Shown: positions 614-22,652 of the stretch, in pieces | How the letters are laid out: the number at the start of each line of letters is the position of its first letter | Numbering within the stretch: position 1 is the first letter of the stretch | Assembly (NCBI GenBank): GCA_038108555.1 | Contig: JAYNIA010000034.1 | Location: 7,687-30,338, forward strand | Length of the DNA: 22,652 bases | Source of the DNA: Nitrospinota bacterium | Lineage (GTDB): Bacteria > Nitrospinota > Nitrospinia > Nitrospinales > VA-1 | Reading direction: 5' to 3' | Translations under genes and position numbers: made by a program | Notes under the pieces: generated by a model | Databases searched by the model: none | What the model saw: the letters and a program-made list of their open reading frames with translations, nothing else | What the model was told of the DNA's origin: nothing

Positions 614-3100
614 TCAATCCATACTATCCATCTCAACCCTCTTTTCTGCCGTTTCAGATAAAATTCCTCGAAGTTCCGGATTTTCGTCTAAGAATAGATT
701 GAAATCAGAATCTCTCAAAACAAGCAGGTCGCAATAACCCAGGGCTTTGACTGAAAAAGTTCTTGGATATTTTTTTATCAATGCTATCTCACCAAAAAAA
801 TCACCACTCCCCAGCAGAACAGGTTCCGGTTCCATCTCCACTTCCACACAACCGGAAGAAATAAAATACATGAAATGTCCGATGTCCCCCTTTTTAAAAA
901 TTACCTCACCGGGTACGGCTAACATGGGTTTTAGGAGCCTGGTAATATGGCTTAAACGCTCTTCGGGAATTTTTTGAAAAAGAGAAACACGACGCACCAG
1001 TATTTCCGGTTCCAGTTTGAGATCCAAAACAGGCCGGAGCTGGTTTTTTTGAAATCGTTCCTGTAAATCTTCTTTGAGATTTTCAAAAACCTCTCCACTT
1101 ATAACCGTTTCCCTGCGGAGCTGTTCATAGTCGGACTCTTGAATCCTCAAGGCCACGTGGTTTAAATAACGCTTCTGCAACATCAGGAAATAATCGGGGT
1201 ACTGTAGCTGCAACAACTGCAATGCTTCTCCCGTTTTTCTCAATCTTTCTTGAATCAATCCCTGGATTATTTCTCTGGCCTTTTTCCCAATAACCGGTTC
1301 CATTTTTGGCAGTGCCTGGAGCAGGTTATCTTTCATCACAGTCTGGCTTGCAAGCAGGATTCCGAATCTGTCTGCCAGGTGAATAGAAAGCATTTTGCTG
1401 TATCCAAATTTGCGGTGAAGGAAAAGTGCAAATTGAAATCGCCAATTAAATTTCAAAATTTTTTCTGAACAATTTTTGTAATCAATATTTTTGGTTTGAA
1501 GTCCGTCCTGAATATTATCAACTTGTGCCAGAAGACGGCGGATGATATAGGTTGATATATAACCTTCTTCAAACTGTTGCAGATAGCCCTCTCTCTCCAA
1601 AGCACAAATATCAAAAAGGCCAACTCGAACCCAATCGGATTCAGATAGTTCCTCCGCCCTTGCCAGCAAACTGTCTACCTTTTTTTCATCTTCTTGATAA
1701 TGTTTAAGGATATTTTCCGACAACTCAGGATTTATACCATTATCATGTGCCTTGCTTTTGAGGGAATTTTGAATTTTCGAAAAAGAATGTTTTAAAGCTC
1801 TATTACGAATAGTCTGGTCGACTGGGTCCAGTTGATCCAGTCCAAACCATTTTAAAACACCTGCAATTGTAGTAGCGTTAACCAAAAGGGTGAACAAAAC
1901 AAAGCCTGTGACTAAAACGCCAATAAACCTTTGAATTTCTAAATCAAATAAAACGTTCTCCATAACAGAAAGGGCCAGAGCCAGAGAAACCGCACCCCGA
2001 AGCCCTCCCCAGAGCATGACAACTTTGAAGGAACTTTTTATTTTTTCAATTGTAAGACCTCTTTCCAAAGTGGGAAGAACCCCAAAGAGAATCAATGCCC
2101 TTGCTCCAAAAGCAGCCAATATTAATACCGCCAGGAATAATAAATCTTCCCCGCTGATATTCCCCATTATTTTGGGAACCACCATTCCCACTAAAACAAA
2201 AATTACGGAATTGGCCCAGAAGGCGAAATGATCCCAGGATTCATGTAATTTTTCCCAGGTGACAGGAGAAAGTGTTGCATGCCCAAACGAACCGACCACT
2301 AAAGCGGCACCCACTACAGCCATAACCCCCGATATATGGAGGTAGTGCTCTGCAAGAATAAAGGAAAAATAAGCAAGCGATAAGGTGAGGGTAATTTGTA
2401 CGAGAGGATATTTCCCCATTCCTGACAAGACAGAACAAAAAATATAACCTATTAGCAGACCAACAAAAATTCCCTGAAGAAAAACTTTTAGAAAAGATTG
2501 TATGCCGGATAAAATTTCTATATTGGAATTTCCTGAAAGCATGGCAGTCAAAATTCCAAATAGAACGATTGCAGTGGCATCGTTAAAAAGACTTTCCCCC
2601 TCAACCAGCACGGACAAACGCTTTGGCGCCTGCAAATCCTTAAAAATAGCCATGACAGCAACAGGATCTGTAGCGGAAACAATGGTACCTAAAAGTAAAC
2701 AAGCGATAAGCGATACACCTGACACCCAATGAAGCACAAAACCCACTACAAAAGCTGAAATTAAAAGCCCGAGAATGGCGAGCCAAAGAATGGGACTAAT
2801 GTCATCTATCAAACGATGGGAATCAATTCCCAATGCTGCTTCAAACACCAGAACAGGTAGAAATATAAAAAGGACCGCATCTGAAGAAATGCTGAAAGAG
2901 TTTAAACTGACAAGAAAATCGCTTAAGATCCCCATGGGTGGCAGGTCGGCTCCCCATTTTCCAATGACACCGAGAAGACAACCAATCACAGCTAGCAATA
3001 CCGTGTATGGGATATTTAGTCGGTGGGCTGCCGGGTACATCAGGACAGCCAACCCGAGCAAGCCACTCAAGCCTAATACGGGCAACCAGATAGGGTCCAA
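614..3100 (-). CDS. CPA1-family (NhaP-like) Na+/H+ antiporter with long cytoplasmic tail and C-terminal cyclic-nucleotide-binding domain
   Basis: About 12 hydrophobic segments with SATDPVAV, EGESLFNDATAIV and GGLRGAVSLALAL. C-terminal GDFFGEIAL...PRTFSV is the cNMP phosphate-binding cassette. The ORF track starts at 3154, but TTG at 3100 has AGGAG (3110-3106) 5 nt upstream and is the preferred start. Confidence 0.9.
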   Translation of the reverse strand: MDPIWLPVLGLSGLLGLAVLMYPAAHRLNIPYTVLLAVIGCLLGVIGKWGADLPPMGILSDFLVSLNSFSISSDAVLFIFLPVLVFEAALGIDSHRLIDDISPILWLAILGLLISAFVVGFVLHWVSGVSLIACLLLGTIVSATDPVAVMAIFKDLQAPKRLSVLVEGESLFNDATAIVLFGILTAMLSGNSNIEILSGIQSFLKVFLQGIFVGLLIGYIFCSVLSGMGKYPLVQITLTLSLAYFSFILAEHYLHISGVMAVVGAALVVGSFGHATLSPVTWEKLHESWDHFAFWANSVIFVLVGMVVPKIMGNISGEDLLFLAVLILAAFGARALILFGVLPTLERGLTIEKIKSSFKVVMLWGGLRGAVSLALALSVMENVLFDLEIQRFIGVLVTGFVLFTLLVNATTIAGVLKWFGLDQLDPVDQTIRNRALKHSFSKIQNSLKSKAHDNGINPELSENILKHYQEDEKKVDSLLARAEELSESDWVRVGLFDICALEREGYLQQFEEGYISTYIIRRLLAQVDNIQDGLQTKNIDYKNCSEKILKFNWRFQFALFLHRKFGYSKMLSIHLADRFGILLASQTVMKDNLLQALPKMEPVIGKKAREIIQGLIQERLRKTGEALQLLQLQYPDYFLMLQKRYLNHVALRIQESDYEQLRRETVISGEVFENLKEDLQERFQKNQLRPVLDLKLEPEILVRRVSLFQKIPEERLSHITRLLKPMLAVPGEVIFKKGDIGHFMYFISSGCVEVEMEPEPVLLGSGDFFGEIALIKKYPRTFSVKALGYCDLLVLRDSDFNLFLDENPELRGILSETAEKRVEMDSMD

Positions 3101-3288
3101 GGGATCTCCTGTAACGAGGTTTACCTTACCCTTATTAAGATAGTTTTCCAACAATCGTTCGTCAACTACATATCAGTTGTAAAATAATTATTCTGGAAAG
3201 TTCAAATTTTAGGGAATATTTTTTTCCTTGTTAGTTTCTTAATTTAATCATAGATTATTAGTGTCTGATAAACTAAGGGGTTTTGCCT

Positions 3289-5055
3289 ATGGCGCAGGGA
3301 ATACGGTTTGGGGATTTCGTAAGGGAAGTCAGCCTTAAACAAAACTTTATTTCCTATAATGCGCTCACCCCTACTTTAAAGACCGACGAAAATGGTAAAG
3401 AGATCCCCTACCAACCTGCCAAGCTTCAATTACGTAGTATAGATATTTACCGGCTTTTAGGTCCTTATGTTGGAACACGCCTTGTCAGCCAGGTAAAAGC
3501 GGTTGTTCCATTGGCCGCCTACCTGTTTCTTTTCCAAATACTCATTCTTCGTCAAGGAGTCCTTGATCATTGGGTCATTTCCGCTGGATTGATCGCGGTA
3601 ATTTTAGGGCTGATGATTTTTATGGAAGGGCTGAAGCTGGGCCTGATGCCCTTTGGAGAAATTATCGGTCATACCCTTCCAAAAAAATCAAAACTTGGCG
3701 TGGTGCTGTTCATTGCTTTTTTATTAGGGATAGGAGTCACTTTTGCCGAACCCGCCATAGGAGCATTGCAGGCGGTGGGCTCAATCGTGGATGTGAAAAA
3801 AGCACCCTATCTTTTTACTTTATTGAACAACTGGACCGGGGCTTTGGTTCTAGTGGTGGGAATGGGAGTCGGACTCGCAGCGGTTTTAGGAACGTTACGT
3901 TTCCTGAATGGTTGGAGTCTGAAACCAATGATCTATTTTTCACTGATCCCCACACTTGGACTAACGATTTACTGCATGGCTGATCCTGAATTGAACAAGG
4001 TTTTGGGACTCGCCTGGGATTGTGGTGCAGTAACTACGGGTCCTGTAACCGTACCATTGGTTCTTTCCCTGGGAATTGGAATTGCCTCTGCGGCTGGTAA
4101 GGGGAATTCATCCCTGTCTGGGTTCGGAATTGTAACGCTTGCTTCGCTATTTCCAATCATCGGTGTTATGGGTCTTGCAATATATGTTTCCTCAACCGTC
4201 AGTGTAGAGTCGATAATCCAGGCTTCCCAATCCGTAGTAGCACAATCACAAATAGGGTGGTGGCAGGAAACACCCTACACAGAAATTATTGCAGGAATAC
4301 AATCCATCGTTCCACTGGTTTTATTTTTGTTCCTGGTTTTAAAGTTGCTGCTAAAGGAAAAAGTTTCTGAACCCGGTATTCTTTTTTATGGCCTATGCCT
4401 TTCCGTTCTTGGAATGATCGTATTCAATATTGGTTTGAGTTACGGCCTGGCAAAACTGGGAAGCCAATCAGGAAGTTTTGTTCCAGCAGCGTTTGCGCCC
4501 ATAGAAAATGTTGAAGGGTCTCCTTTATATGTTTATGGGGTCGGAATTTTTATTGCTGTATTCTTTGCATGGATTCTTGGTTTTGGTGCCACCCTGGCAG
4601 AACCGGCTTTGAATGCTCTGGGAAAAACCGTGGAAAATCTTACCAATGGAGCCTTTAAAAAAAGCATGCTTATGTATGCCGTTTCCATTGGAGTGGGTTT
4701 CGGGATTAGTCTTGGAGTTCTAAAAATAATTTTTGAAATTCCAATCTCTTATCTTTTGTTACCGGGTTATATTCTGGGAATCCTACTCACCTCACTTTCA
4801 TCAGAAGAATTTGTTAACGTTGCATGGGACAGCGCCGGGGTAACCACAGGACCGGTTACTGTTCCTCTGGTTTTAGCCATGGGTCTTGGCTTTGGCAATG
4901 CCGTTAACGCTATTGAAGGGTTTGGAATTTTATCTATGGCATCTATCTGCCCTATTTTGTCGGTTTTAATTACCGGTCTATGGGTTCAATTTAAAAGAAA
5001 GCAAGCGGATCGTGCTCGTGTTGAATTATTAAAAGGCCAGGAAGGAGTGGCATGA
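3289..5055 (+). CDS. Tandem DUF1538-domain integral membrane protein (putative transporter)
   Basis: Two internally homologous hydrophobic halves: GVTFAEPAIGAL / GATLAEPALNAL, AWDCGAVTTGPVTVPLVL / AWDSAGVTTGPVTVPLVL, GFGIVTLASLFPII / GFGILSMASICPIL. ATG 3289 follows AAGGGG; an alternative TTG start is at 3283. Confidence 0.85.
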   Translation: MAQGIRFGDFVREVSLKQNFISYNALTPTLKTDENGKEIPYQPAKLQLRSIDIYRLLGPYVGTRLVSQVKAVVPLAAYLFLFQILILRQGVLDHWVISAGLIAVILGLMIFMEGLKLGLMPFGEIIGHTLPKKSKLGVVLFIAFLLGIGVTFAEPAIGALQAVGSIVDVKKAPYLFTLLNNWTGALVLVVGMGVGLAAVLGTLRFLNGWSLKPMIYFSLIPTLGLTIYCMADPELNKVLGLAWDCGAVTTGPVTVPLVLSLGIGIASAAGKGNSSLSGFGIVTLASLFPIIGVMGLAIYVSSTVSVESIIQASQSVVAQSQIGWWQETPYTEIIAGIQSIVPLVLFLFLVLKLLLKEKVSEPGILFYGLCLSVLGMIVFNIGLSYGLAKLGSQSGSFVPAAFAPIENVEGSPLYVYGVGIFIAVFFAWILGFGATLAEPALNALGKTVENLTNGAFKKSMLMYAVSIGVGFGISLGVLKIIFEIPISYLLLPGYILGILLTSLSSEEFVNVAWDSAGVTTGPVTVPLVLAMGLGFGNAVNAIEGFGILSMASICPILSVLITGLWVQFKRKQADRARVELLKGQEGVA

Positions 5056-5442
5056 TACAACGAGAAATAACCGTTTTAACAGATATTGCTTTAATCACCT
5101 GTATTGTTCAACGAGGTGTTGCAGATGACATTATTCAGGCTGCCCGCGAAGCCGGGGCACAGGGGGCCACCGTTCACTTTGCCCGAGGTATGGGGATTAG
5201 GGAAAGGTTGGGGATTTTGGGGGTTTCTGTTGAAGTAAAAAAAAGAGGTTATTGAAATTGTAGTATCTAAAGAACAGGTGGAAAGAGTATTCGAACGAAT
5301 GTATTTAGCCGGTAACCTGGATACTCCAGGAATGGGAATCATGTACATCACCCCTTTGGATAAAGCGGCTACTTACATTCCTCCCGATGTTCTTGCAAAA
5401 TTTTCAACAGATGAACAAAAGCCAGAAACCAAAACTGATTAA
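5052..5442 (+). pseudogene. P-II-family (GlnB-like fold) regulator, frameshifted at an A8 homopolymer (5237-5244); may be intact in vivo
   Basis: The first frame reads LITCIVQRG..AAREAGAQGATVHFARGMG..LGVSVEV and stops at 5255. A second frame from 5245 continues EVIEIVVSKEQVERVFERMYLAGNLDTPGMGIMYITPL to TAA 5440-5442. Removing one A gives a 129-aa P-II-like protein. ATGA overlap with the DUF1538 gene. Confidence 0.85.
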
Positions 5443-5802
5443 TTGAGCGAACCGATCTTCATGGAAGAAAAAATAATTAGAAAAGAAAAACGCATCACTT
5501 GTTTTTTACCCAAAGGTGCCGGGTTAAAAATTGTTGAGATGCTCCATGTCGAAAAAAAAATTGACTCGACCAATGTTCATACGGGAAGAGGATTGAGAAC
5601 TGTCGAAAGCGTGAAAGATTATGGGGCCTGGTCTGAACAGGATATTTTAACGGTGATTGTTGATGCCGACCGAGCAAAAGAGATTTTTGATTATATTTTT
5701 TTTCAGGGAGAACTCAATAAACCTGGAGGAGGCTTTATCTTCCAAGCAGACATCCAACGCTCCACACCCTTTTATCTTCCTGAGATTGAAGAGAGCAAAT
5801 AA
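5443..5802 (+). CDS. Second, divergent P-II-like protein
   Basis: KRITCFLPKG..HTGRG..EQDILTVIVD..EIFDYIF..ELNKPGGGFIF parallels the upstream P-II-like gene. It abuts the upstream stop codon; an alternative ATG is at 5461. Confidence 0.7.
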   Translation: MSEPIFMEEKIIRKEKRITCFLPKGAGLKIVEMLHVEKKIDSTNVHTGRGLRTVESVKDYGAWSEQDILTVIVDADRAKEIFDYIFFQGELNKPGGGFIFQADIQRSTPFYLPEIEESK

Positions 5803-9513: not shown

Positions 9514-9682
9514 ATGGAAAACGATAAAAGGCTGCTTGTGGTTGAAGTCTTAAAACAAAATTCCATCGATCTGATTTTGTCAGATTGGGATATGCCCAGG
9601 ATGGATGGTGAGGTGGGCCGATATCATTAAGGGAAGTTTCGACCAGTCCAATCTTTTTGCAACCATCCAGAGCCTGATCTAA
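9514..9682 (+). pseudogene. Remnant of a response-regulator receiver domain (CheY / CheA-hybrid type)
   Basis: 9514-9630 translates MENDKRLLVVEVLKQNSIDLILSDWDMPRMDGEVG. A shifted frame at 9617-9682 gives ADIIKGSFDQSNLFATIQSLI*. The receiver motifs are in order but the intervening segments are missing. Confidence 0.75.
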
Positions 9683-9737: not shown

Positions 9738-9821
9738 GGGCAAAATAAGTTCCCTGTCAGAGGGAAACCAAAAACAGCCTAGAGTCCTTGGACTGTAGGT
9801 CGTAAAAATGGCGGGGCCGAC
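9738..9821. repeat. Diverged direct repeat of the tRNA-Asp 3' end and downstream terminator (att-like, distal copy)
   Basis: Three identical blocks are shared in the same order with 22516-22602: GGGCAAAATAAG (9738-9749 / 22516-22527), AAAAACAGCCTAG (9770-9782 / 22549-22561) and TGGCGGGGCCGAC (9809-9821 / 22590-22602, the last 13 nt of the tRNA including CCA). Confidence 0.9.
9770..9803 (-). terminator. Degenerate intrinsic terminator within the att-like copy
   Basis: CCTA/TAGG and AGTCC/GGACT stem followed by T5 on the minus strand, about 45 nt downstream of the 9848 stop codon. Confidence 0.5.
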
Positions 9822-9847: not shown

Positions 9848-10612
9848 CTATTTAAAAAATAAATTCAGAGTTTGAAAAAATTTTTCTCTAAGCTCTTCCA
9901 GCCGGTCAGGTAAAACCGTCATAAATTTTGGATTAAACCAAGGCGAAGATAAATATAGAGCCCGGCTCATTTCGATTTGAATACAGGGGATAGGCTGGTT
10001 TCCGTAGGTCCGCGTTATATGTCCGCCAGAGAAGGGTTTGTCTATGACAACATCCTCTTGATTTAATTTATAAACTTTTCTAATGCAATCTGCCATTTTT
10101 TGAACGATATCTTCAGGGCAGCTTTTACCAAAATTGCTTCCCAAACAAAACTTGGGTCTGGTTTTTCCTGGATCGGGAGAAATTTCAGGGCCAACCGCTT
10201 CCATAGTATGACAGTCCAACATCAGTTGGAGCTCGCTATTTGAATCTAAAGTTTTACGAATCAAGTCATGGTAGGGGTAATAGTATTTTTCTAAAACTAA
10301 ATCAGTCATTTCCTGATCCAATTCTTGTCCTTTATGATAAATAGGTTGGCCAAGACAAGTCATGGATTTAACCACTCCATCAGGATTTTCCGGTGGGCGA
10401 TCGTTAACATCCCGATTCAAATCAACAAAAGCCCTTGCGATTTTTCCCTCCACACACGCTGATACACTGTCATTTATTCCATATATCTGGCGTGTTAAAG
10501 CATCACCATCTTCAAATTGGTCTTTTGCAGTAATAAATACTCTAGAAGATATTTCGGGAGGGACATCGGTTCCACCATGTGGAATGGATAACAGAACCGG
10601 AAATTTACTCAT
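9848..10612 (-). CDS. N-formylglutamate amidohydrolase (HutG/FGase)-family protein
   Basis: LSIPHGG, ARAFVDLNR, YYYPYH, LDCHTM, PFSGGHIT, IQIEMSR motifs. Confidence 0.9.
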   Translation of the reverse strand: MSKFPVLLSIPHGGTDVPPEISSRVFITAKDQFEDGDALTRQIYGINDSVSACVEGKIARAFVDLNRDVNDRPPENPDGVVKSMTCLGQPIYHKGQELDQEMTDLVLEKYYYPYHDLIRKTLDSNSELQLMLDCHTMEAVGPEISPDPGKTRPKFCLGSNFGKSCPEDIVQKMADCIRKVYKLNQEDVVIDKPFSGGHITRTYGNQPIPCIQIEMSRALYLSSPWFNPKFMTVLPDRLEELREKFFQTLNLFFK

Positions 10613-10615
10613 TAT

Positions 10616-12247
10616 TTAAAACCCTGAAGCAGTTCCATCTCTACGGATTTCTGCAACACCTTGAAATTCACCTGTTGTTTGAGATTTTAATATGGCATGA
10701 ACAGCACCCAGGTAAAAAGAATAGGGTTCCCTGGAATCTATTTTATAGCCCGCCCTTTTTAAATAATCGACAATTGTAGGGTCAAATCTTTCTTCCTCCA
10801 ATGTTAATTTTCCTCCAACTGTACAATGCATTCTAGGCCTTAGCATTGCTTCACTAATGGGTAGGTCACCATCAATGATATGAGAAAGAAATTGACTCAT
10901 TGCAGAAAAAATCCGCTCACTTCCAGGGCTCCCCGCTACCATCCAAGGTTGATTATTATAAAAAGCAATAATTGGAGCTACTGAACTCCATGGAATTGCA
11001 TTAGGTCTCAAGTAATACGGATGAGATGGATCACTCGTATCAAGAGAACTCATATAATTGTTATACAAAAACCCCAACCCACGGGCAGCAACCTTGGACC
11101 CATAAACCAATTCAATAGATTGGGTTATACCAATGGCATTTCCTTCCTTATCCATGACCGAAAGATGGGTTGTATCATTGTTCAATGTGAAAAGCTCTGT
11201 TAAGGGCAACGTGGGATCAATTTCATCACGAATGGAGGCTGAAAGATTCCTGGCGAATTCCAGACTGAGAATTTTTTTATCATGAGGGAGTTGAGGATAA
11301 ATATTTGGATCGAAGGGTCGTTCTTTATGGTTCAGCAAACCCTTGCGGAAAGTTTCTGCAAGAAAATGAAAGGTTTTGGGAGTTGGATTTTTGAAAAACT
11401 TTGAAGGAAGGTTTTTCATCATTTGTAATACAAGCATCAAAGTCCTTCCAGCTCCGGGAGGAGGGCAGGTAAAGATTTTTACCTTGCGATAGTTTCTCCT
11501 TATGGGTTTTCTCTCGACAGGCCAGGGAATTAAAGCGAGGTCTTCCAACCTAAGAAACCCTTCATTAAACCGCATGTCCTCATCAATTTGTTTGGCAATA
11601 TCTCCTGAATAAAAAGATTTTATCCCGTGCAACAATAAATGTTCGAGCAAACCCGCCAGGTCTTCCTGAGTAAATTTCTCACCTTCTTCATATGGTTTCT
11701 TGCCATCCTTTAAAAAATATTTTGCTCCCGAGAGAGAATCCATATTGAGAAACTTTTCCAATTCTCTCATTTGCAGATCGTGTTGCAACTTGGATATCCT
11801 ATAACCTTCTCTAGCAATTTTAATGGCGGGCTTTAGAACTTCAGACCAATTCAATTTGCCATAACGGAAATGAAGATAACCTAAAACCGCAGGAGTGCTG
11901 GGAACGGTAGTGGCTTTATATCCCTGGAATCTCTGTGTCTTTTTATCGATTCTGTCTATATGAGCCAGAGAGGGAACCCGGCTTGAGCCATCCAGGGCTA
12001 CAGTCTTTCCTTGATAATGGAGTATGGCCATAGATTGCCCGCCAAGACCACTGGCCTGAGGTTCACAAACTCCCAATGCAAAAGCAGAGGCTACAGCCGC
12101 ATCAACGGCATTCCCACCCATGCGTAGCATCTCGACCCCAGCTTGGGTAGCATCTGGAAAAGCAGTCGATACCATCCCGTTTTCAGAGGTTGCGCATTTA
12201 CCATCTTCAGTAGGCGCAAATTTTCCCTCTATATTTCCAAGTTTCAT
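10616..12247 (-). CDS. ggt: Gamma-glutamyltransferase-family Ntn hydrolase with atypical donor pocket
   Basis: GGNAVDAAVA, EPQASGLGG, TVPST, PPPGAG, autoprocessing site ND/TTHLSVMD, PWSSVAP, GSPGS, PRMH. ATGA overlap with the upstream gene. Confidence 0.9.
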   Translation of the reverse strand: MKLGNIEGKFAPTEDGKCATSENGMVSTAFPDATQAGVEMLRMGGNAVDAAVASAFALGVCEPQASGLGGQSMAILHYQGKTVALDGSSRVPSLAHIDRIDKKTQRFQGYKATTVPSTPAVLGYLHFRYGKLNWSEVLKPAIKIAREGYRISKLQHDLQMRELEKFLNMDSLSGAKYFLKDGKKPYEEGEKFTQEDLAGLLEHLLLHGIKSFYSGDIAKQIDEDMRFNEGFLRLEDLALIPWPVERKPIRRNYRKVKIFTCPPPGAGRTLMLVLQMMKNLPSKFFKNPTPKTFHFLAETFRKGLLNHKERPFDPNIYPQLPHDKKILSLEFARNLSASIRDEIDPTLPLTELFTLNNDTTHLSVMDKEGNAIGITQSIELVYGSKVAARGLGFLYNNYMSSLDTSDPSHPYYLRPNAIPWSSVAPIIAFYNNQPWMVAGSPGSERIFSAMSQFLSHIIDGDLPISEAMLRPRMHCTVGGKLTLEEERFDPTIVDYLKRAGYKIDSREPYSFYLGAVHAILKSQTTGEFQGVAEIRRDGTASGF

Positions 12248-14436
12248 ATTTTAAAATTCTTCGATGAAAGAAAAATAAGGTAGGCAAGCAGGACACTCCT
12301 GTCAATCAAACTGTCGCGAACGACATTCTCATTATTAGTTCCATAACCACCGGTTACTGGACCCATTCCATCAAGCGCAGGAATTCCTTCTCCAATATTG
12401 GACAGGCAGGTGACAACACTGTTTTCAGCTTTTTTTACGCGAACCTCAACCGCCTTGGCGGCTTTTTCCACTTTTTCATAGAAACTAAGCGTTTTTTCAT
12501 TTTCACGAAAAGGTTTGCTTTGCGGTTTTTTAGTTATGTGGACCTTAATTTGATCTTGTGCCTTTGTGGCAAATATCTGGTTCACTTGTTCTTCCAATCT
12601 GGCTCTTTGGTCCGGGCTGCGATATCGAATTACAAATGACAAGGCTGCATGGTAGGTAGGCTGGTCCTCCATTCCTTTGGTTTGCAAACCAGTAACAGTG
12701 ACAAAAATCCCGTCCGATTCATAATTTAGTTTTCTTAGTGAATTGATTTTTTGAGAAGCATATAAGACCGGATCACTAACCTCAGAAGAGACTTTCAGAC
12801 CCTGCTTATTCTGACGTCTGTTTATTTCAATCTCATATCGAAGAGTTCCCGAGCAGGAGGTCATGATTTCTCCACTCAATCCCGCTCCACTCAAACCCAA
12901 AACGTATTTTGATTTTTTGGAATGCTCTTCAATAACCGGTTTTGAAGTACGTTGTCCATAAGACTCGTCGGGGATTAAAAGGATTCCACATTTCACTTTT
13001 CGTAAATTCCGCGTGTATCGCAAGGCTTTCAGGGCACCGAGCAATACGGTAAGGCCCCCTTTCCCTCTTGCAACCCCAGTACCGTAGATCCTTCCCTTTT
13101 CTTCATGAAAGGAATTAAAATCTTCAAAATCTATTGGGTTATCCATATTTCCAATAATCAAAACATCATTGATCTCGTCCATATGATTTGTGAGATATAC
13201 AATATTTCCGAATTCTGCTCTTGAAAAAACATGCCTGTTAAATCCCATCCGTCCAAGCTGATTGGATATCCATCTACCTAATGAATTCACACCCTCAATA
13301 TTTTCAACAAATGAATTTATTTCGACCATGTTTGAAAGATATTCTTCCATGGAAGCAAGGTTTCCTCTTAGGTAACTCCGCAAACGAATCCTTAGAGGAT
13401 CTTTTTTAGTATTCGACTCGGGCTCTTCAACCGCGACCTGTTCAATCTGCTGGCTGCCGAAGTAACGCTCAACGGCTACATCAAGCATACGGTTTACCAT
13501 GGCAGGAAAAGAATATCCTGCAACCTTGGCTGCATGGACATAAGAGCCCGTATCCCCCAAACTTGCCATTGAGTTGAGTTCAAGAATATAAAGATTCCCA
13601 TCTTTGTCCATTCGGTAATCGACCCGGCAAAAATCATAGATTCCCAAGACTTTGAAAGTTTCCCGGGTTAACCGTCGAAGTTCTTCCGCAAGGTTTTGGT
13701 CAATGTTGGCAGGGCAGATTTTCTCTTTAGGTTTTTTCAGCTTATCTTCTAAAGACTGAATTGCATTCGGGTCCCCTTCAAGATCGATTTCCAATATTGG
13801 CAAAATTTCCGGGTTATGGTTGCCCAATAGACCCACCGCAAATTCCCGACCTGGTATAAATTGTTCGACTAAAACGGGCTGTTTGAATTGGTCAACAAGA
13901 TCTGAAATTGCAGTTTTCAATGAAGGCAAATCATGAATAACTTGAATTCCCATTGAAACTGCTTCCATTTTAGGTTTGGTTATGACCGGGAAAGGAAGGT
14001 CATCGGGAATTTGATCCGCATTATAGAAAACCCAGTAGGGGGAGGTAGGCAACCCCGCTGCCTGAATCATAACCTTGGTAGTTACTTTGTCTAATGCGAT
14101 TCCATGACCCGCAGGACTGGAACCTACATACGGCACACCCAACATCTCCAACAAAGAAGGAATATGAGTATATCGACTTACTCCTTGTAGACCATAAGCC
14201 ATGTTGAAAACCATACCCGGTTGCTCCCCCTGAACAACACGAGGCATGAAGGTTTGTAATTGTTCAATAACGTTGATATTGCCATCAATAATCCGGACAT
14301 TATGACCGCCTTTTTCAAGGGAACTTGCTACGCGCTCAACAGTTTTGGGATTATATGTTTCCTGGTTTTGCATCCCAAATACGTTAAGCACACCTTCAGC
14401 ATCTTTTTGTTTATTGTAAATAACGGCAACCTTCAT
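12244..14436 (-). CDS. Fusion of a D-Ala-D-Ala-ligase-like ATP-grasp domain and a degenerate M20 peptidase-like domain
   Basis: N-terminal half: VFNMAYG, LEMLGVPYVGS, ALDKVTTK, PVITKP..SMGI, LVEQFIPGREF, RVDYR, LELNSM. C-terminal half: MVEINS..EGVN, VLIIGNMD, GRIYGTGV..KGG, IPDES, GIPALDGMGP (M20 scaffold). Confidence 0.85.
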   Translation of the reverse strand: MKVAVIYNKQKDAEGVLNVFGMQNQETYNPKTVERVASSLEKGGHNVRIIDGNINVIEQLQTFMPRVVQGEQPGMVFNMAYGLQGVSRYTHIPSLLEMLGVPYVGSSPAGHGIALDKVTTKVMIQAAGLPTSPYWVFYNADQIPDDLPFPVITKPKMEAVSMGIQVIHDLPSLKTAISDLVDQFKQPVLVEQFIPGREFAVGLLGNHNPEILPILEIDLEGDPNAIQSLEDKLKKPKEKICPANIDQNLAEELRRLTRETFKVLGIYDFCRVDYRMDKDGNLYILELNSMASLGDTGSYVHAAKVAGYSFPAMVNRMLDVAVERYFGSQQIEQVAVEEPESNTKKDPLRIRLRSYLRGNLASMEEYLSNMVEINSFVENIEGVNSLGRWISNQLGRMGFNRHVFSRAEFGNIVYLTNHMDEINDVLIIGNMDNPIDFEDFNSFHEEKGRIYGTGVARGKGGLTVLLGALKALRYTRNLRKVKCGILLIPDESYGQRTSKPVIEEHSKKSKYVLGLSGAGLSGEIMTSCSGTLRYEIEINRRQNKQGLKVSSEVSDPVLYASQKINSLRKLNYESDGIFVTVTGLQTKGMEDQPTYHAALSFVIRYRSPDQRARLEEQVNQIFATKAQDQIKVHITKKPQSKPFRENEKTLSFYEKVEKAAKAVEVRVKKAENSVVTCLSNIGEGIPALDGMGPVTGGYGTNNENVVRDSLIDRSVLLAYLIFLSSKNFKI

Positions 14437-14521: not shown

Positions 14522-15898
14522 TTAAATTAGAAAAATAGCTGCTAATCCCAAAAACACAAAAAAACCAATAACATCCGTCACAGTTGTAAGTAATACTGTA
14601 GAAGAAATGGCTGGGTCGCTTCCAATTTTATTCAAAAAAATTGGAATTCCAGCTCCAAAAAATCCTGCAACGATAAGATTGATAATCATGGCAACAGCTA
14701 TGATTATTCCTAATTCAATATTGTGAAACCACATACCTGCAATCAACCCAACAATAATAGCGAAGAAAACACCATTCAAAGTTCCAACCAAAGTTTCCTT
14801 CCAGATCACTCGAAAAGAATTTATGTTGGAAATTTCCCGCATGGCCAACCCACGAACCGCTATGGTTAAAGCTTGTGTCCCCGCGTTTCCACCCATCGAA
14901 GCTACAATTGGCATCAAAATGGCCAACGCTACAATCTCCTGAATGGTTGCATCGAAAAAAGAAATGACGACTGAAGCAAGGATAGCTGTTAAAAGATTTA
15001 TAAACAGCCAGCGAAACCGGGAGCCACTTGTGGTAATTACGTCTCGATAAAGTCCCGGAGCTTGGACCCCTGCCAATTGCAGGATTTCTTTTTGTGCTAT
15101 TTTGTCAATTACATCCACAACATCATCAATGGTGATAACTCCGATCATGCGCTCTTCAGTATCCACAACCGCTGCGGACAATAAATTTTCACGTCGAAAA
15201 ATCTGTGCCACTTCATCCTGATTCATTGTTGCTGGTATAGAAAATATTTTCTCTTGCGCAAGAGTTTCCAGAACTACCTGACTTCCAGATCGAACCAAAA
15301 CAGCCAAAGGAACTTTTCCGGTAACCTTAGAATCGGATGTGACAATAAAAATATCAGAGAAAATCGCCGGCAATTCTTCTCCTGAAGAAGCTCGAAGGGA
15401 TTCCAGGGTTTCTTCAACTGTCCAAGACTGTGGAATGGCAACAAACTCTCTTTGCAACAAACGACCCGCACTATCTTCTGGAAAATTTAATCCTTCCTCC
15501 AGGGAAATTCTTTTCTTAATAGGTAATTTGCGAATTACATTTTTTTGAAAGTTTTCCTCAAGGTTTTTAATCACCTCAAGGGCATCATCACTTTCTAGTG
15601 ATGAAACCAGTTCAGCAACCTGGGGAACTTCCATATTCTGTAAAACATTTTTGCGAAGCTCTGGGTCGAGCTCTGCAAATGCATCGGGAGTAATTGCTTC
15701 AGAATGTTGCTCCAATAGAATTTGACGATTGTCCTCGGTAACCTTGCCCAAAAGCTCGGCACAATCGGAAGCATTCAGGCTGGCTATAGCAGAATCAACC
15801 GCTTTTTCCCTGCCCTCTTTTAAATCTTCTTCAATACTTTGGATTTCGGAATCACTGATAGAAAAGGAGGCTCCCTCTTCCTTAGGTTCATCTTGCAT
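14522..15898 (-). CDS. mgtE: Magnesium transporter MgtE
   Basis: Acidic N domain, CBS pair (EDSAGRLL, GVITIDDVVD), transmembrane region with RFRWL, MGGNAGTQ, DPAISS..TTVTDV. ATG 15898 is preferred over TTG 15916. Confidence 0.95.
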   Translation of the reverse strand: MQDEPKEEGASFSISDSEIQSIEEDLKEGREKAVDSAIASLNASDCAELLGKVTEDNRQILLEQHSEAITPDAFAELDPELRKNVLQNMEVPQVAELVSSLESDDALEVIKNLEENFQKNVIRKLPIKKRISLEEGLNFPEDSAGRLLQREFVAIPQSWTVEETLESLRASSGEELPAIFSDIFIVTSDSKVTGKVPLAVLVRSGSQVVLETLAQEKIFSIPATMNQDEVAQIFRRENLLSAAVVDTEERMIGVITIDDVVDVIDKIAQKEILQLAGVQAPGLYRDVITTSGSRFRWLFINLLTAILASVVISFFDATIQEIVALAILMPIVASMGGNAGTQALTIAVRGLAMREISNINSFRVIWKETLVGTLNGVFFAIIVGLIAGMWFHNIELGIIIAVAMIINLIVAGFFGAGIPIFLNKIGSDPAISSTVLLTTVTDVIGFFVFLGLAAIFLI

Positions 15899-16074
15899 AA
15901 CCCACTTTAGGCTCAAAAATATTTAGTTAAATTTGGGGAAATTAATATAAAATTTACAGCACTCCAAGTGGAGCCCAATGGTTCATTTTAATTCAACGGG
16001 ATTAAATACCTATCAATTATTTTTAATAATTCATGAATTTTTAGGGGTGTAATTACCCCTTTTTTGGAGAAAAA

Positions 16075-17951: not shown

Positions 17952-19133
17952 ATGAAAGATGAAAAGATTATTTATCTCAAGGGTAACAGAATTTGCCCTG
18001 ATCCAATAGATGGCAGTTTGACGATAAAGAATTTGGTGAATGAATATTTCAATGGCTATAACGCAGCCCGGTTAAAGGAAATCTGCCAACTCGTTTCTCT
18101 GAAAATGTCTCAACCTGATGTGTTCATTGGGGTGAGTCTTTCCGGAGCTCTGACTCCAGCAGGATTAGGGTCCTCCTGCATTGTTCCTCTGATGCGGATG
18201 GGAATGATTGATTATATTATCAGCACAGGCGCAAACCTGTATCACGACCTGCATCATTCTTTAAACCTTGAATTGCTTCAGGGTAGTCCTTTTGTGAATG
18301 ATAACGAATTGTTTGAAAACAATATTATTCGTATATATGACATTTTTATGGATTTCAATGTGCTGACCAATACGGATCATTGGCTTATCACTACCATGGC
18401 GCAACCTGAGTTCCAAAAACGTATGGGTACACGGGAATTACATCAGTTGATAGGTAAATACGCCGATCAGGTCGAATCAAAACTCAATACTACCGGAAAA
18501 AGTATTATTGCTGAAGCTTATCGCCTGGGAGTCCCTATCTACACTTCATCTCCAGGGGATAGCACCCTCGGAATGGATATTGCTGCGCTAAATTTGATTG
18601 GAAAAGAAATATTCATTGATCCGTCAATAGATGTGAACGAAACATCCGCAATAGTTCTTGAAGCTAAATTAAAAGGAAAAAGCGGGGTGATTGTTTTCGG
18701 GGGAGGTTCACCGAAAAACTTTATTCTTCAAACTGAGCCTACGCTTCAAGAGGTTTTGGGAATTGATATTAAAGGACATGATTATTTCGCGCAAATAACT
18801 GATGCCAGACCCGATACGGGTGGACTTTCCGGGGCTACTCCCTATGAAGCTGTAAGCTGGGCAAAAATCGATCCAGAAACTGTTCACCATTCAGTTGTTT
18901 GTTATTGCGACACCACAATAGTCATGCCAATTCTGGTGGGATATCTTCAAGACCTTGGAATCAGAAAAACCCCTAGAAAACTTTGCGAAAAGATTCCGGT
19001 TTTAATTGAGAATCTTCGAAAGGCATTTTTAGCAGAAAATAATTCTGGAGATGGAAATCGTAATGTTTCTGAAGTGGTTAAGTTTTTGAAGGAGACCTGG
19101 AAAGAAACAAAGGTTTTTTCAAGACCTAAATAA
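17952..19133 (+). CDS. Deoxyhypusine-synthase-family protein (bacterial; homospermidine/polyamine synthesis type)
   Basis: SLSGALTPAGL, STGANLYHD, IRIYDI, SPGDSTLG, GGGSPKNF, DARPDTGGLSGATPYEAVSWAK (catalytic Lys retained). AAGGA RBS. Confidence 0.9.
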   Translation: MKDEKIIYLKGNRICPDPIDGSLTIKNLVNEYFNGYNAARLKEICQLVSLKMSQPDVFIGVSLSGALTPAGLGSSCIVPLMRMGMIDYIISTGANLYHDLHHSLNLELLQGSPFVNDNELFENNIIRIYDIFMDFNVLTNTDHWLITTMAQPEFQKRMGTRELHQLIGKYADQVESKLNTTGKSIIAEAYRLGVPIYTSSPGDSTLGMDIAALNLIGKEIFIDPSIDVNETSAIVLEAKLKGKSGVIVFGGGSPKNFILQTEPTLQEVLGIDIKGHDYFAQITDARPDTGGLSGATPYEAVSWAKIDPETVHHSVVCYCDTTIVMPILVGYLQDLGIRKTPRKLCEKIPVLIENLRKAFLAENNSGDGNRNVSEVVKFLKETWKETKVFSRPK

Positions 19134-19558: not shown

Positions 19559-19813
19559 ATGATACAAGAACTGGTTTCAGATTTTTGGCTAAATGGAAAA
19601 GATTTAAAAGAAGAAGGTACGTTTCGAGCTGCTTTAAACCTGTTGTTAAAGGAAGTGAGAACAATGCTTGACAGTTCAAGTCAATTGGCAAAATCCATTG
19701 ATAGGGGTGACTCCCATAAAGTTATGGCTAAATTTGCTACCGAAGAAGGTTATGGAGATTTAGCTGAAATACTTCAAGTTGGTGAAGATGAAAAAGAAAA
19801 GACAATCATGTGA
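19559..19813 (+). CDS. Hypothetical protein with partial-repeat C-terminus
   Basis: AAGGGA RBS; its C-terminal part is duplicated at 22433-22487 with several synonymous changes, supporting coding status. Confidence 0.6.
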   Translation: MIQELVSDFWLNGKDLKEEGTFRAALNLLLKEVRTMLDSSSQLAKSIDRGDSHKVMAKFATEEGYGDLAEILQVGEDEKEKTIM

Positions 19814-20350: not shown

Positions 20351-21409
20351 ATGGATTTATTAGAAATAAACCAAACCTTTTTAGTCCATTTGGGGACAGC
20401 TCTTGGTCTAGCGGGTTTAGCTTTTGGTTTACTTCAGTTATTAAAATCAAAAATACTGGCTCAATCCCCACCCAAAAACCCTACCTTTAGAAAAACCTAT
20501 GACTTGATCCAAGGACTACTTTCAAAAACCAGATGGTTTTTTGTATTAATCCTTTCAATTTACTTTGGGTCTCTTGTCTTAAACCTTCCTGGACCAGTTG
20601 CCAAAAAAATCGGTCAAGTAGTTTTTATTGTTTTACTTATTCAAATTGGCTTGTGGGGTACTTGGTGGCTTAGCCATTGGGCCAAAGTTACATTTAAAGC
20701 AAAGAAAGAATCCGATTCTGCTCAGGCATCTGCTATAGGCCTGCTTAAAATAATCGGCCAAACTGTGCTTTGGGTAATTCTTATTGTTGCGGGTTTGTCC
20801 AATTTAGGATTTGAAGTATCCACTCTGGTCGCTGGGTTGGGAGTTGGTGGTATCGCCATTGCCCTGGCATCACAGAAAATTTTGGGAGATTTGTTTGCCT
20901 CCCTAACCATAATCCTCGATAAACCATTTGTAGTTGGTGATTATATTGTTTCTAATGATATCCGGGGGACAGTAAAGAAAATAGGACTCAAAACTACATT
21001 GGTCAGAAGTCTGGAAGGGGAAATGTTAATTCTACCCAATTCAGACCTATTGGAAAGTCGTTTAAGAAATTTTCGAAGGATGGAAGAACGGCGAGCACTG
21101 ATAAGCATTGGCGTTGTATATCAAACACCCCTTGAAAAATTAAAAATTATTCCAAAATTAGTTCGGGAAATTATTGAAGGCCAGGAAAACACCCGTTTTG
21201 ATCGGGCCCATTTCAAGGAATACGGCCCACATTCCCTTAATTTTGAAATAGTTTATTTTTTAACATCAAGGGATTACCACTTATACATGGATACCTTGCA
21301 AGAAGTTAATTTAAAGATTTTTGAACTTTTTGAAAAAGAGAAGATTGAGTTCGCCTACCCAACTCAAACGGTGTTTCTTGAAGGAAAGGATGAAAATAAG
21401 AACTCATAA
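20351..21409 (+). CDS. MscS-family small-conductance mechanosensitive channel
   Basis: LVAGLGVGGIAIALASQKILGDLFAS, DKPFVVGDYI, GTVKKIGLKTT, LILPNS, IEFAYPTQT. Confidence 0.93.
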   Translation: MDLLEINQTFLVHLGTALGLAGLAFGLLQLLKSKILAQSPPKNPTFRKTYDLIQGLLSKTRWFFVLILSIYFGSLVLNLPGPVAKKIGQVVFIVLLIQIGLWGTWWLSHWAKVTFKAKKESDSAQASAIGLLKIIGQTVLWVILIVAGLSNLGFEVSTLVAGLGVGGIAIALASQKILGDLFASLTIILDKPFVVGDYIVSNDIRGTVKKIGLKTTLVRSLEGEMLILPNSDLLESRLRNFRRMEERRALISIGVVYQTPLEKLKIIPKLVREIIEGQENTRFDRAHFKEYGPHSLNFEIVYFLTSRDYHLYMDTLQEVNLKIFELFEKEKIEFAYPTQTVFLEGKDENKNS

Positions 21410-21450: not shown

Positions 21451-22185
21451 ATGAACCCTACCCACAAAAGTTTTAGTACATTTGACCTTCAACCTGGAAG
21501 AAAGCTGGCAGGGAAATTTGAAGTTATTTCAAAGTTAGGCAATGGATGGGAAGGGGAAGTTTATAAAGTCCGCGAGATTAAAACCAAAATTGTGCGTGCC
21601 GCAAAACTTTTTTTTCCTAATAGAAATTTACTAGAAAAATCATCCAAGGCTTATGCCCAAAAACTTCATAAACTTCGAGAATGTTCTTTATTAATCCACT
21701 ACCATACTCAAGAAACCATTATTTTTAGGAAGCAAGCCATTTCGGTTTTAATTTCTGAATATGTAGAGGGGGAGCTTTTATCTGATTTTATTGAAAATTT
21801 TCCGGGGAATCGGCTGGACCCTTACAAAGCTCTTCATTTGCTTTATGCCCTTGTAGTAGGGCTGGAAGAAGTTCATTTGATGAGGGAATACCATGGTGAT
21901 TTGCACCTGGATAACATCATTGTGCAAAGGTTTGGACTTGTCTTTAATGTCAAGGTTTTGGATTTGTTCCACTGGAAGTTACCGAAAAGCGAAAATATGC
22001 AGGATGATGTTATCGGATTAATTAAAGTTTTTTATGAAAGTATGGGAGGGTCAAAATATTATTCCAAGCACCCCGAGATTGTAAAAAATATTTGTTGTGG
22101 CTTAAAGCGAAGTTTAATTCTCCACAAATTTAAAACAATTTCACACCTAAGAAGTTATCTGGAAACCTGCGAGTTTACAGACTAG
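21451..22185 (+). CDS. Single-domain Ser/Thr protein-kinase-like protein
   Basis: Gly loop LGNGWEGEVY, AAKLF, ISEYVEG, HGDLHLDNII, VLDLF in place of DFG. Confidence 0.85.
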   Translation: MNPTHKSFSTFDLQPGRKLAGKFEVISKLGNGWEGEVYKVREIKTKIVRAAKLFFPNRNLLEKSSKAYAQKLHKLRECSLLIHYHTQETIIFRKQAISVLISEYVEGELLSDFIENFPGNRLDPYKALHLLYALVVGLEEVHLMREYHGDLHLDNIIVQRFGLVFNVKVLDLFHWKLPKSENMQDDVIGLIKVFYESMGGSKYYSKHPEIVKNICCGLKRSLILHKFKTISHLRSYLETCEFTD

Positions 22186-22434
22186 TTGGAAAACAGCTAT
22201 AAGAGCAATTCCATGGTTGAATCTATACTGAGATAGCCACTCCACACAGGTTTTTATTTATTTAGCGATGGGTAGTTTTTCCTTAGTAATTATTTATCCA
22301 CCCAACCCTTTATAATTACGAAAAACATCCATTCAGCGTTATTTCTCGGACTAAATTTCTCAATATATTTTTTCTGTGAGTATGAATTTTCCTGGGGCTC
22401 TGGTGGGGGCCGGTCGGGATTCCCTAAAAAAATT

Positions 22435-22506
22435 ATGGTTAAATTTGCTACAGAAGAGGGTTATGAAAACCTGGCTAACATACTTCACGCTTATAAGGTA
22501 AATTAA
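22435..22506 (+). pseudogene. Fragment paralogous to the C-terminus of ORF 19559..19813
   Basis: MVKFATEEGYENLANILH versus MAKFATEEGYGDLAEILQ; 45/55 nt identical (22433-22487 versus 19722-19776). Confidence 0.7.
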
Positions 22507-22547: not shown

Positions 22548-22583
22548 AAAAAACAGCCTAGGGTCCATGGACCATAGGCTGTT
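22548..22583 (-). terminator. Intrinsic terminator downstream of tRNA-Asp
   Basis: Near-perfect palindrome AACAGCCTA-G-GGTCCA/TGGACC-A-TAGGCTGTT ending in T6 on the minus strand, 6 nt after the CCA. Confidence 0.85.
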
Positions 22584-22589
22584 AAAAAG

Positions 22590-22652
22590 TGGCGGGGCCG
22601 ACGAGACTCGAACTCGCGACCTCCGGCGTGACAGGCCGGCGTTCTAACCAAC
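22590..22652 (-). tRNA. tRNA-Asp (anticodon GTC), 5' end outside the window
   Basis: Reverse complement GTTGGTTAGAACGCCGGCCT-GTC-ACGCCGGAGGTCGCGAGTTCGAGTCTCGTCGGCCCCGCCA shows the D-loop, anticodon arm, TTCGA T-loop and encoded CCA. Confidence 0.97.

Follow-up and report, generated by a model that had tools for sequence, protein, structure and literature searches.

The stretch of DNA analysed here (the window, 22,652 nucleotides of contig JAYNIA010000034.1 from the Nitrospinota bacterium assembly GCA_038108555.1) carries on its reverse strand a three-gene operon, which open reading frame (ORF) calling and Pfam searches resolve into a ligase with an ATP-grasp domain fused to an M20 domain (12244..14436, 730 aa), a GGT-like enzyme (10616..12247, 543 aa), and an FGase-like hydrolase (9848..10612, 254 aa). 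An earlier note, made from the sequence alone (hereafter the original prediction), had proposed that these genes encode a writer/transferase/eraser set acting on one N-acyl-glutamate-like or dicarboxyl amide. Both junctions, re-read on the sequence, are as it claimed: the ligase stop and the GGT start overlap in an ATGA, and a 3-nt gap separates the GGT stop from the FGase start. The maximal 11-residue N-terminal hydropathy, a crude check made without SignalP, is 0.67 for the ligase, 0.44 for the GGT-like enzyme, and 1.12 for the FGase-like enzyme, whereas a canonical, secreted GGT encoded at a related locus reaches 2.25; lacking a signal-like stretch, all three enzymes are likely cytoplasmic, as had been proposed. 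Relatives at 81–88% identity lie mostly in metagenome-assembled genomes (MAGs) of Nitrospina/Nitrospinaceae, and the host genome is Nitrospinaceae-type.

Active sites of the ligase and the two hydrolases

The ATP-grasp domain (13456..14436, reverse strand; aa 1–327, with Pfam Dala_Dala_lig_C at 124–318) has the Ddl fold. In an alignment of 111 sequences (the query and 110 of 120 listed matches, each of at least 700 aa), the ATP-binding and catalytic residues K117, K154, E191, E198, K232, R271, D273, E286, and N288 are kept in at least 98%, as is the donor-amine glutamate E26, equivalent to Ddl Glu15. These residues, the ATP/Mg and catalytic set of a Ddl-branch ATP-grasp ligase together with the donor-amine glutamate, show the ligase site to be complete. 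Among the residues that we take to form the Ddl substrate pocket (Glu15, His63, Ser150, Tyr216, and Gly276), only the Glu15 equivalent is retained; relative to the genome's own Ddl, His63, Ser150, Tyr216, and Gly276 are altered to Y81, V160, L233, and S292, and an invariant R88 lies next to the pocket. The ligase scores 152 and 133 bits against Ddl NCBIfam models with cut-offs of 243 and 245.65, respectively, and is 30% identical to the genome's true Ddl, which scores 380 bits against the cut-off of 243 and is encoded in a murG-murC-ftsQ-ftsA-ftsZ (dcw) cluster. With sub-cut-off scores, lost pocket residues, and a separate true ddl, the ligase is, as judged from sequence, not a D-Ala-D-Ala ligase, an identity that, together with an ordinary glutathione hydrolase, the original prediction had named as fatal to it.

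The C-terminal domain (12244..13404, reverse strand; aa ~345–730, with Pfam Peptidase_M20 at 439–721) has carboxypeptidase G2 (CPG2) as its closest solved M20. All five metal-ligand sites, compared with an intact M20 from a sister locus, are occupied by other residues (N430, R457, S492, S516, and G699), and the canonical metal set is restored in none of the 111 aligned homologues, the distant ones retaining at most one His and one Glu. The domain is thus a pseudo-M20, as first described. We infer that it acts as a binding or oligomerisation module, and it is kept in all fused forms of the ligase. In one genome (G020:C1:1996997-1999184), the ligase gene is broken by a frameshift near codon 480.

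The GGT-like enzyme matches Pfam G_glu_transpept and scores 343.6 against the NCBIfam GGT cut-off of 357.85. Its nucleophile Thr359 aligns with residue 1 of GGT small subunits (Thr in 75 of 75 sequences) and the Ser-Ser pair is kept; the N-terminal Thr nucleophile and the Ntn fold of GGT are therefore both present. In the gamma-glutamyl pocket (E. coli numbering), Arg114 is changed to S88, Gln430 to Y398, Asp433 to S401, and Gly483-Gly484 to G442-S443, so that, with the equivalents of Arg114, Gln430, Asp433, and Gly484 all replaced and the score below the cut-off, the enzyme is atypical, as had been noted. Its subfamily carries the signature motifs DGSSR.P, TQS.E, YNNY, GSPGSERI, and RRDG, of which YNNY is constant across the triad-type sequences compared. 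Asp433/445 of the E. coli/B. subtilis GGTs is described as binding the donor alpha-amine, and mutants at this position as losing transpeptidation, keeping hydrolysis, and gaining glutaryl-acylase activity (PMC8062742). Because the equivalents of both Asp433 and Gln430 are lost and Asp433/445 mutants only hydrolyse, a role as second eraser is more likely for the GGT-like enzyme than one as transferase. The proposed writer/transferase/eraser set thus stands as a conserved, cytoplasmic, glutamate-linked make-and-break set, but its transferase probably does not. The lost pocket ligands and the separate subfamily also argue against an ordinary glutathione hydrolase, and canonical secreted GGTs with all ligands adjoin the operon in five loci.

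The third enzyme has an FGase Pfam match, and its residues H11, D37, R67, H115, H135, and E214, aligned to PDB 2Q7S, are invariant in 12 of 12 sequences, which preserves the metal and catalytic residues of the FGase fold. It appears not to be HutG, because its score of 114 lies far under the TIGR02017 cut-off of 278.75 and hutU was not found in the genome (92% complete); gshB was likewise not found there. A Pfam scan of the window proteins found no hut or cell-wall genes, in agreement with the original prediction. In one archaeal locus (L111:5105-6646), the FGase-like protein bears a 260-aa C-terminal extension with no Pfam match.

Conservation of the cassette and exchange of its hydrolases

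Of 92 Nitrospinota genomes, 35 have the ligase, 34 this GGT type, and 34 the FGase; the three occur together in 33 and are all missing from 56. The exceptions are two loci cut by contig ends (G006 and G075) and one genome with only an FGase fragment (G071), and the ligase accompanies the FGase in 33 of the 34 FGase-bearing genomes. In a neighbourhood survey of 111 loci, whose counts include duplicates and one over-sampled metagenome, 84 of the 99 loci that are informative have the GGT-like gene directly downstream of the ligase, and the FGase lies near it in 57 of 63. The linkage of the three genes is therefore near-obligate and beyond chance. In one group of loci (L037-L042), the GGT is broken after ~40 codons with the ligase ORF intact, as checked in L038 and L042, where only a 5' fragment of GGT is left; an integrase gene lies downstream in L038-L041.

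The cassette extends well beyond this phylum. Thirteen of 151 Nitrosomonadaceae genomes have the ligase, followed by GGT in 14 of 14 loci read, which cover the ligase-GGT part and not the FGase position; the FGase is absent beside L023. In Planctomycetota, the ligase occurs in 12 of 401 genomes, and the trio is intact in seven of nine distant full-length loci at 33% identity. The trio is also present in archaeal loci, the archaeal members being named Nitrosopumilaceae, and among the carriers in culture are Nitrospina gracilis, N. watsonii, Nitrosomonas aestuarii, and Nitrosopumilus sp. K4. Marine nitrifiers of three kinds (bacteria that oxidise nitrite, bacteria that oxidise ammonia, and ammonia-oxidising archaea) thus share the cassette with planctomycetes, and the possibility, raised at the outset, that the triad is not conserved elsewhere does not hold. 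Some assignments need care. Three contigs 81% identical to Nitrospinaceae ligases (L006, L008, and L013) are in MAGs labelled Planctomycetota, Woeseiaceae, and Phycisphaerales and are probably mis-binned, and the order around G094 has a ligase match in one of 201 genomes, itself probably mis-binned. A single 90%-identity cluster contains ligase as well as GGT sequences from an estuarine archaeon; either a fusion of the two or an artefact of the clustering might account for this.

The 15 loci without GGT downstream are informative as to what takes its place. An intact CPG2/PRK07338-like M20 lies upstream in eight, five of which also have an eam-like KamA; a class-I glutamine amidotransferase is found in two and other GGTs upstream in two, the GGT has moved ~10 kb away in two, and a chemoreceptor gene occupies its place in one. 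The replacement hydrolases are, from their family matches, glutamate-amide types. In the five sister loci (four distinct) where the ligase follows KamA and an intact M20, the ligases nest inside the triad clade (FastTree, midpoint root) and have the same pocket motifs. In one lineage (L059-L064, L070, L080, and L083), GGT and FGase are separated by the inserted gene of a methyl-accepting chemoreceptor, which has a 4HB sensor and may recognise the cassette substrate or product as its ligand. As a partner of the cassette, the chemoreceptor was rejected, being confined to that lineage.

Stand-alone ATP-grasp relatives without the M20 domain (39–45% identity) are encoded on 13 rhizobial plasmids. 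Of ten such loci read, one, from Bradyrhizobium, is an operon of Arg-type kamA, a sister-subfamily GGT, an RloB-like 7TM gene, and the stand-alone ATP-grasp; one has the ATP-grasp gene after kamA, one (NGR234) before a CapA-family gene whose best NCBIfam match is an epimerase, and the rest are patternless. The RloB-like 7TM stands beside the ATP-grasp in Bradyrhizobium (L117:3282-8047) and is fused to it in a planctomycete (L220:6521-8968).

The aminomutase link and the proposed function

The KamA of the sister loci has as its best model the glutamate 2,3-aminomutase TIGR04368 (564–595 bits in the three scored), the lysine model giving 435–454 bits. It has Lys/Thr at the positions of Asp293/Asp330 of lysine 2,3-aminomutase (2A5H numbering), that is, a basic residue at the first site and loss of Asp at the second, and lysine-type KamA controls have Asp/Asp. 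Presumably, the two aspartates anchor the side-chain amine of lysine, and position 293 of Eam is Lys. No KamA scores above the TIGR04368 cut-off of 650 in any of the 92 Nitrospinota genomes, including the one analysed here (G000), whose second KamA, on contig C16 (L127:4836-6002; 242 bits), carries Arg at 293 and which also has a lysine-type KamA on C30, rejected as a partner on account of Asp/Asp at both sites. In Nitrospinota, an Arg-type KamA occurs in 33 of 35 ligase genomes and in 34 of 57 others; in Nitrosomonadaceae, any KamA occurs in 11 of 13 and 17 of 138, respectively, those of the main 440–540-aa type having Arg in 12 of 12 sequences read. In Planctomycetota, the Arg type occurs in 8 of 12 ligase genomes and 41 of 389 others, a control taken from the full count of 401 genomes in place of a hand-picked one (3/14 basic-type); two of the remaining ligase genomes (G524 and G540) have a Lys-type KamA, and none was found in the other two (G641 and G093). 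The pattern is one-way, the cassette occurring mostly with such a KamA and not the reverse, and therefore fits a cassette acting on an aminomutase product. Two Arg-type KamA subfamilies are candidate glutamate aminomutases of oxygen-respiring hosts.

Two further arrangements involve KamA. In L085/L086:2979-10172, whose ligase cluster is named Latescibacterota, two Lys-type aminomutases (a 598-aa type and an eam-like one) lie divergently next to an M20-ligase operon. In a separate cassette (L132:4954-8888, L131, L112, L150, and L151), one or more Ddl-like ligases and a KamA of the lysine type have a small gene between them; this cassette is found in further families of Nitrospinota and in some genomes of the Nitrosomonadaceae group, and is an outgroup to the present ligase.

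The product of a glutamate aminomutase, beta-glutamate, is described as an osmolyte of methanogens (PMC1224877) and, at 730 mM, as exceeding in abundance every other metabolite identified in Nitrosopumilus maritimus SCM1 (PMC8269262); eam is listed among genes under Na+ riboswitches (PMC9337991), and a KamA-like protein, IdnL4, has been proposed to make beta-glutamate in a streptomycete pathway (PMC11284099). Our preferred reading, still a tentative one, is that the operon makes and hydrolyses a beta-glutamyl amide of glutamate or beta-glutamate and so provides a reversible store of this osmolyte. An unlinked KamA of the Arg/Lys type (here that on C16) would make beta-glutamate, and the ligase would activate its carboxylate and couple it to glutamate or a second beta-glutamate, giving a dipeptide or short oligomer. 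The GGT-like enzyme, with its nucleophile kept and its alpha-amino ligands lost, would hydrolyse the beta-glutamyl bond, the FGase-like enzyme would free the C-terminal glutamate, and the dead M20 domain would bind the product or build an oligomer. Condensing two anionic monomers would lower the particle number while keeping charge and fixed C and N, which would suit fluctuating salinity and osmotic and K+/Mg2+ charge buffering. The substrate class first proposed would thus be retained in that it is glutamate-linked, but instead of a generic acyl group the evidence favours beta-glutamate as the donor, from which the product is deduced. A broader version, in which marine nitrifiers of three guilds, planctomycetes, and other marine bacteria condense beta-glutamate to beta-peptide dimers or oligomers released by two hydrolases, as an osmotic capacitor, is possible though rather doubtful.

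Several observations weigh against the beta-glutamate store. That Lys or Arg at Asp293 marks glutamate specificity is our assumption; the eam-like KamA proteins of the sister loci score below the TIGR04368 cut-off, and the two Arg-type subfamilies (L127:4836-6002; L153-L163) are widespread, lie below all equivalog cut-offs tried, and have only a predicted function. Neither the window nor any triad-type locus of the survey has an aminomutase linked to the triad, most aminomutase carriers are without the cassette, and kinship and shared marine habitat inflate the association, which Fisher p values consequently overstate. No such KamA was found in the ligase genomes G063, G006, G220, G221, G641, G093, and G094/G095, of which G094/G095 are incomplete and the last three probably contain mis-binned contigs. 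SCM1 is not among the carriers identified here. The main text of a study of the endometabolomes of N. gracilis Nb-211 and N. adriaticus mentions no dipeptide (PMC11428151), methanogen beta-amino-acid pools are described as turning over little (PMC1224877), and the loss of Arg114 and the absence of a signal peptide are also reported for true intracellular GGTs of extremophiles (PMC8062742).

Other substrates would account for part of the evidence. If the ligase, as a non-Mur-type polyglutamate synthetase, used ordinary L-glutamate to make gamma-Glu-Glu or oligo-gamma-glutamate, trimmed from either end by the hydrolases, then a GGT without alpha-amino ligands would fit an N-blocked gamma-glutamyl donor, and CPG2 as the nearest solved M20, the CapA-family and RloB-like 7TM neighbours or fusion of the stand-alone relatives, and the RimK/RimB or CP-ATP-grasp genes in 12 of 40 long close loci would fall into place. 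We consider this unlikely: the operonic eam-like genes and the KamA association would be left unexplained, the CapA-like neighbour is limited to one of ten plasmid loci and best matches an epimerase, and no PGA_cap (CapA) gene, the only one of its kind searched for, was found in the genome. Distinctly unlikely is an amidation of beta-glutamate with ammonia or a small amine, giving beta-glutamine or a beta-glutamyl-amine, with the GGT-like enzyme as the matching amidase. Known osmolytes include beta-glutamine (PMC1224877), in L094, L096, and L101 the ligase start overlaps a gene for a class-I glutamine amidotransferase, nitrifiers live on ammonia or nitrite, and a homospermidine-synthesis gene lies within the same genomic island (see below). 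However, that gene is beside the ligase in none of 31 related loci, beta-glutamine synthesis as described proceeds by glutamine synthetase (PMC1224877), and there would be no C-terminal glutamate for the CPG2-like M20 and the FGase-like enzyme, near-obligate as it is, to free.

Tagging of a protein or cofactor with (beta-)glutamate, the dead M20 serving as substrate adaptor and the hydrolases removing the tag, has a precedent in the action of RimK/RimB on RpsF (PMC12239564). The retention of the M20 domain in all fused forms and the occasional adjacent kinase would agree with it, but a conserved small carrier or target gene is absent in the 111 loci and the stand-alone relatives have no M20 domain. 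Moreover, Ddl-fold ligases bind a free donor amine and form dipeptides, and we regard tagging as improbable. A salvage route is quite improbable: the ligase would activate an imported solute, whether beta-glutamate or another, by turning it into a transient amide bound for disposal, with no storage, which two hydrolases per ligase and the amino-acid permeases and chemoreceptor adjoining in some lineages might suggest, but the trio is not conserved together with any dehydrogenase, lyase, or transporter, and hydrolysis of the product would merely give the substrates back. That the genes encode a second D-Ala-D-Ala ligase, a glutathione hydrolase, and HutG, which are indeed the best family and PDB matches, is hardly credible and is largely refuted by the scores, the pocket residues, and the separate true ddl; the occurrence of the cassette in archaea, the canonical secreted GGTs beside it, and the failure to find hutU and gshB in the genome also speak against it.

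By analogy, the cassette works most like RimK/RimB and RloABC of Pseudomonas, in which an ATP-grasp ligase is paired with cognate glutamate-peptide hydrolases, yet it appears to belong to neither. Rlo is linked to hypo-osmotic survival, and loss of its ligase is reported to rescue loss of the peptidases (PMC12239564); the same islands repeatedly contain RimK/RimB genes, and the stand-alone relatives are accompanied by RloB-like 7TM genes. The present ligase, in contrast, has the Ddl and not the RimK fold, the erasers are of the Ntn and FGase folds and not retropepsins, all the enzymes would be cytoplasmic, and the predicted linkage is beta (or gamma), not alpha; no retropepsin or 7TM is encoded in the operon and no RimK above the cut-off in the genome. 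Membership in the poly-gamma-glutamate Cap/Pgs systems is not indicated either, as judged from CapA alone. With Ddl/Van, the ligase has in common the fold, the ATP and catalytic residues, and the donor-amine glutamate, but differs in its changed pocket, the fused pseudo-M20, its location outside the cell-wall cluster, and its occurrence in archaea. The GGT family, including class IV cephalosporin (glutaryl) acylases, YwrD, and CapD, shares the Ntn fold, the Thr nucleophile, and the Ser-Ser pair with the GGT-like enzyme, and the glutaryl acylases share the loss of Asp433, whereas the cassette enzyme forms its own subfamily, having lost both Gln430 and Asp433, and is operonic with a ligase. Likewise, HutG (PF05013, 2Q7S) has the same fold and metal and catalytic residues as the FGase-like enzyme, which differs in its sub-cut-off score and in the lack of a detected hut pathway. 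The NAGGN synthesis trio, which we take to be TIGR03103/03104/03106, is presumably similar in being an operon of three genes for an amide osmolyte, with a peptidase of its own next to an ATP-grasp-like ligase, but the cassette has neither a GNAT nor an asparagine-synthase-like amidotransferase, and its hydrolases are of other families. Eam, the beta-glutamate/beta-glutamine osmolytes, and AblAB offer the parallel of an aminomutase-made beta-amino acid solute modified by a second enzyme; there, the known second step is acetylation (AblB) or amidation by glutamine synthetase, and the accessible part of the beta-amino-acid osmolyte literature describes no ATP-grasp conjugation or dedicated hydrolases for beta-glutamate.

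Genomic setting and implications

The operon is the final cargo of a 12.8-kb island bounded by tRNA-Asp, because the 3' end of the tRNA-Asp (GTC) gene and the next 39 nt (22549..22652, reverse strand, with the tRNA 5' end cut by the contig end) are repeated at 9770..9821 (reverse strand) with 82% identity; the 13-nt exact tRNA 3' end occurs twice (chance mean, 0.17), and the island proposed earlier is thus confirmed at both boundaries. The other cargo comprises mgtE for a Mg2+ transporter (14522..15916, reverse strand, 85 nt upstream of the ligase), a nuclease-like gene, a second deoxyhypusine-synthase-like gene assigned to homospermidine synthesis (17952..19133, forward strand; 503 against a cut-off of 450, another paralogue lying on C7), and genes for an MscS channel (20351..21409, forward) and a small protein kinase (21451..22185, forward). 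No ORF of integrase size is left unassigned in the island by the ORF list and Pfam. A terminator-like hairpin lies at 9769-9748, promoter-like sites are not above chance (12 vs 15.5), and no riboswitch was found in the window or in ten distant loci. Insertion sites differ in relatives, being after GGCT-DDAH or, in Nitrosomonas, beside fliLM.

A Mg transporter, MscS-like genes, and other glutamate-ligase genes occur in 21, 19, and 12 of 40 long loci of close relatives, but in 4, 2, and 1 of 25 loci of distant ones. Being enriched near close relatives and weak in distant ones, mgtE (a frequent neighbour) and MscS are context and not cassette parts, and the osmotic role read from them is favoured in the close relatives and weakly in the distant ones. 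The kinase, whose gene immediately precedes that of the ligase in L004, L005, and L018 (a fragment in L008), was rejected as a partner as non-core island cargo; so were the homospermidine gene, owing to its absence beside related ligases, and GGCT and dimethylargininase, which are core genes at the insertion site and are located elsewhere in this genome.

The window shows other features of its own. A 38-codon remnant resembling a response-regulator receiver domain lies just outside the island (9514-9630, forward strand), and a 59-nt repeat (81% identical) occurs at 19718-19776, within an 84-aa ORF (19559-19813), and at 22429-22487, where it is remnant-like. Also outside the island (3283-5802 and 614-3154), a gene for a double DUF1538 protein, followed by a 119-aa ORF with no Pfam match, is divergent from a Na+/H+ antiporter gene with a cNMP-binding domain.

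No published description of the trio or of a beta-glutamate conjugation pathway was found, key subscription papers being outside the reach of the search; a survey of ATP-grasp gene neighbourhoods, reportedly published by Iyer et al. in 2009, may include this cassette. Collectively, the cassette appears to be real, undescribed as far as searched, and of the ligase-plus-eraser kind, with a substrate deduced from its residues and associations. Few ammonia-oxidising archaea are reported to encode ectoine, and their alternative osmolytes had not been identified (PMC11428151). Few osmolytes of marine nitrifiers have been assigned so far, and this shared, horizontally mobile cassette, present in cultured strains of Nitrospina, Nitrosomonas, and Nitrosopumilaceae, narrows the substrates worth testing to a short list. 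If the beta-glutamate store is correct, it would be the first pathway known to conjugate and turn over beta-glutamate and would explain three families mis-annotated as Ddl, GGT, and HutG. It would also identify the KamA families of the Arg type as the glutamate aminomutases found in oxygen-respiring hosts, add a new amide metabolite to marine organic nitrogen, and provide two enzymes that might be useful in biocatalysis, a beta-peptide ligase and a hydrolase of beta-glutamyl bonds.

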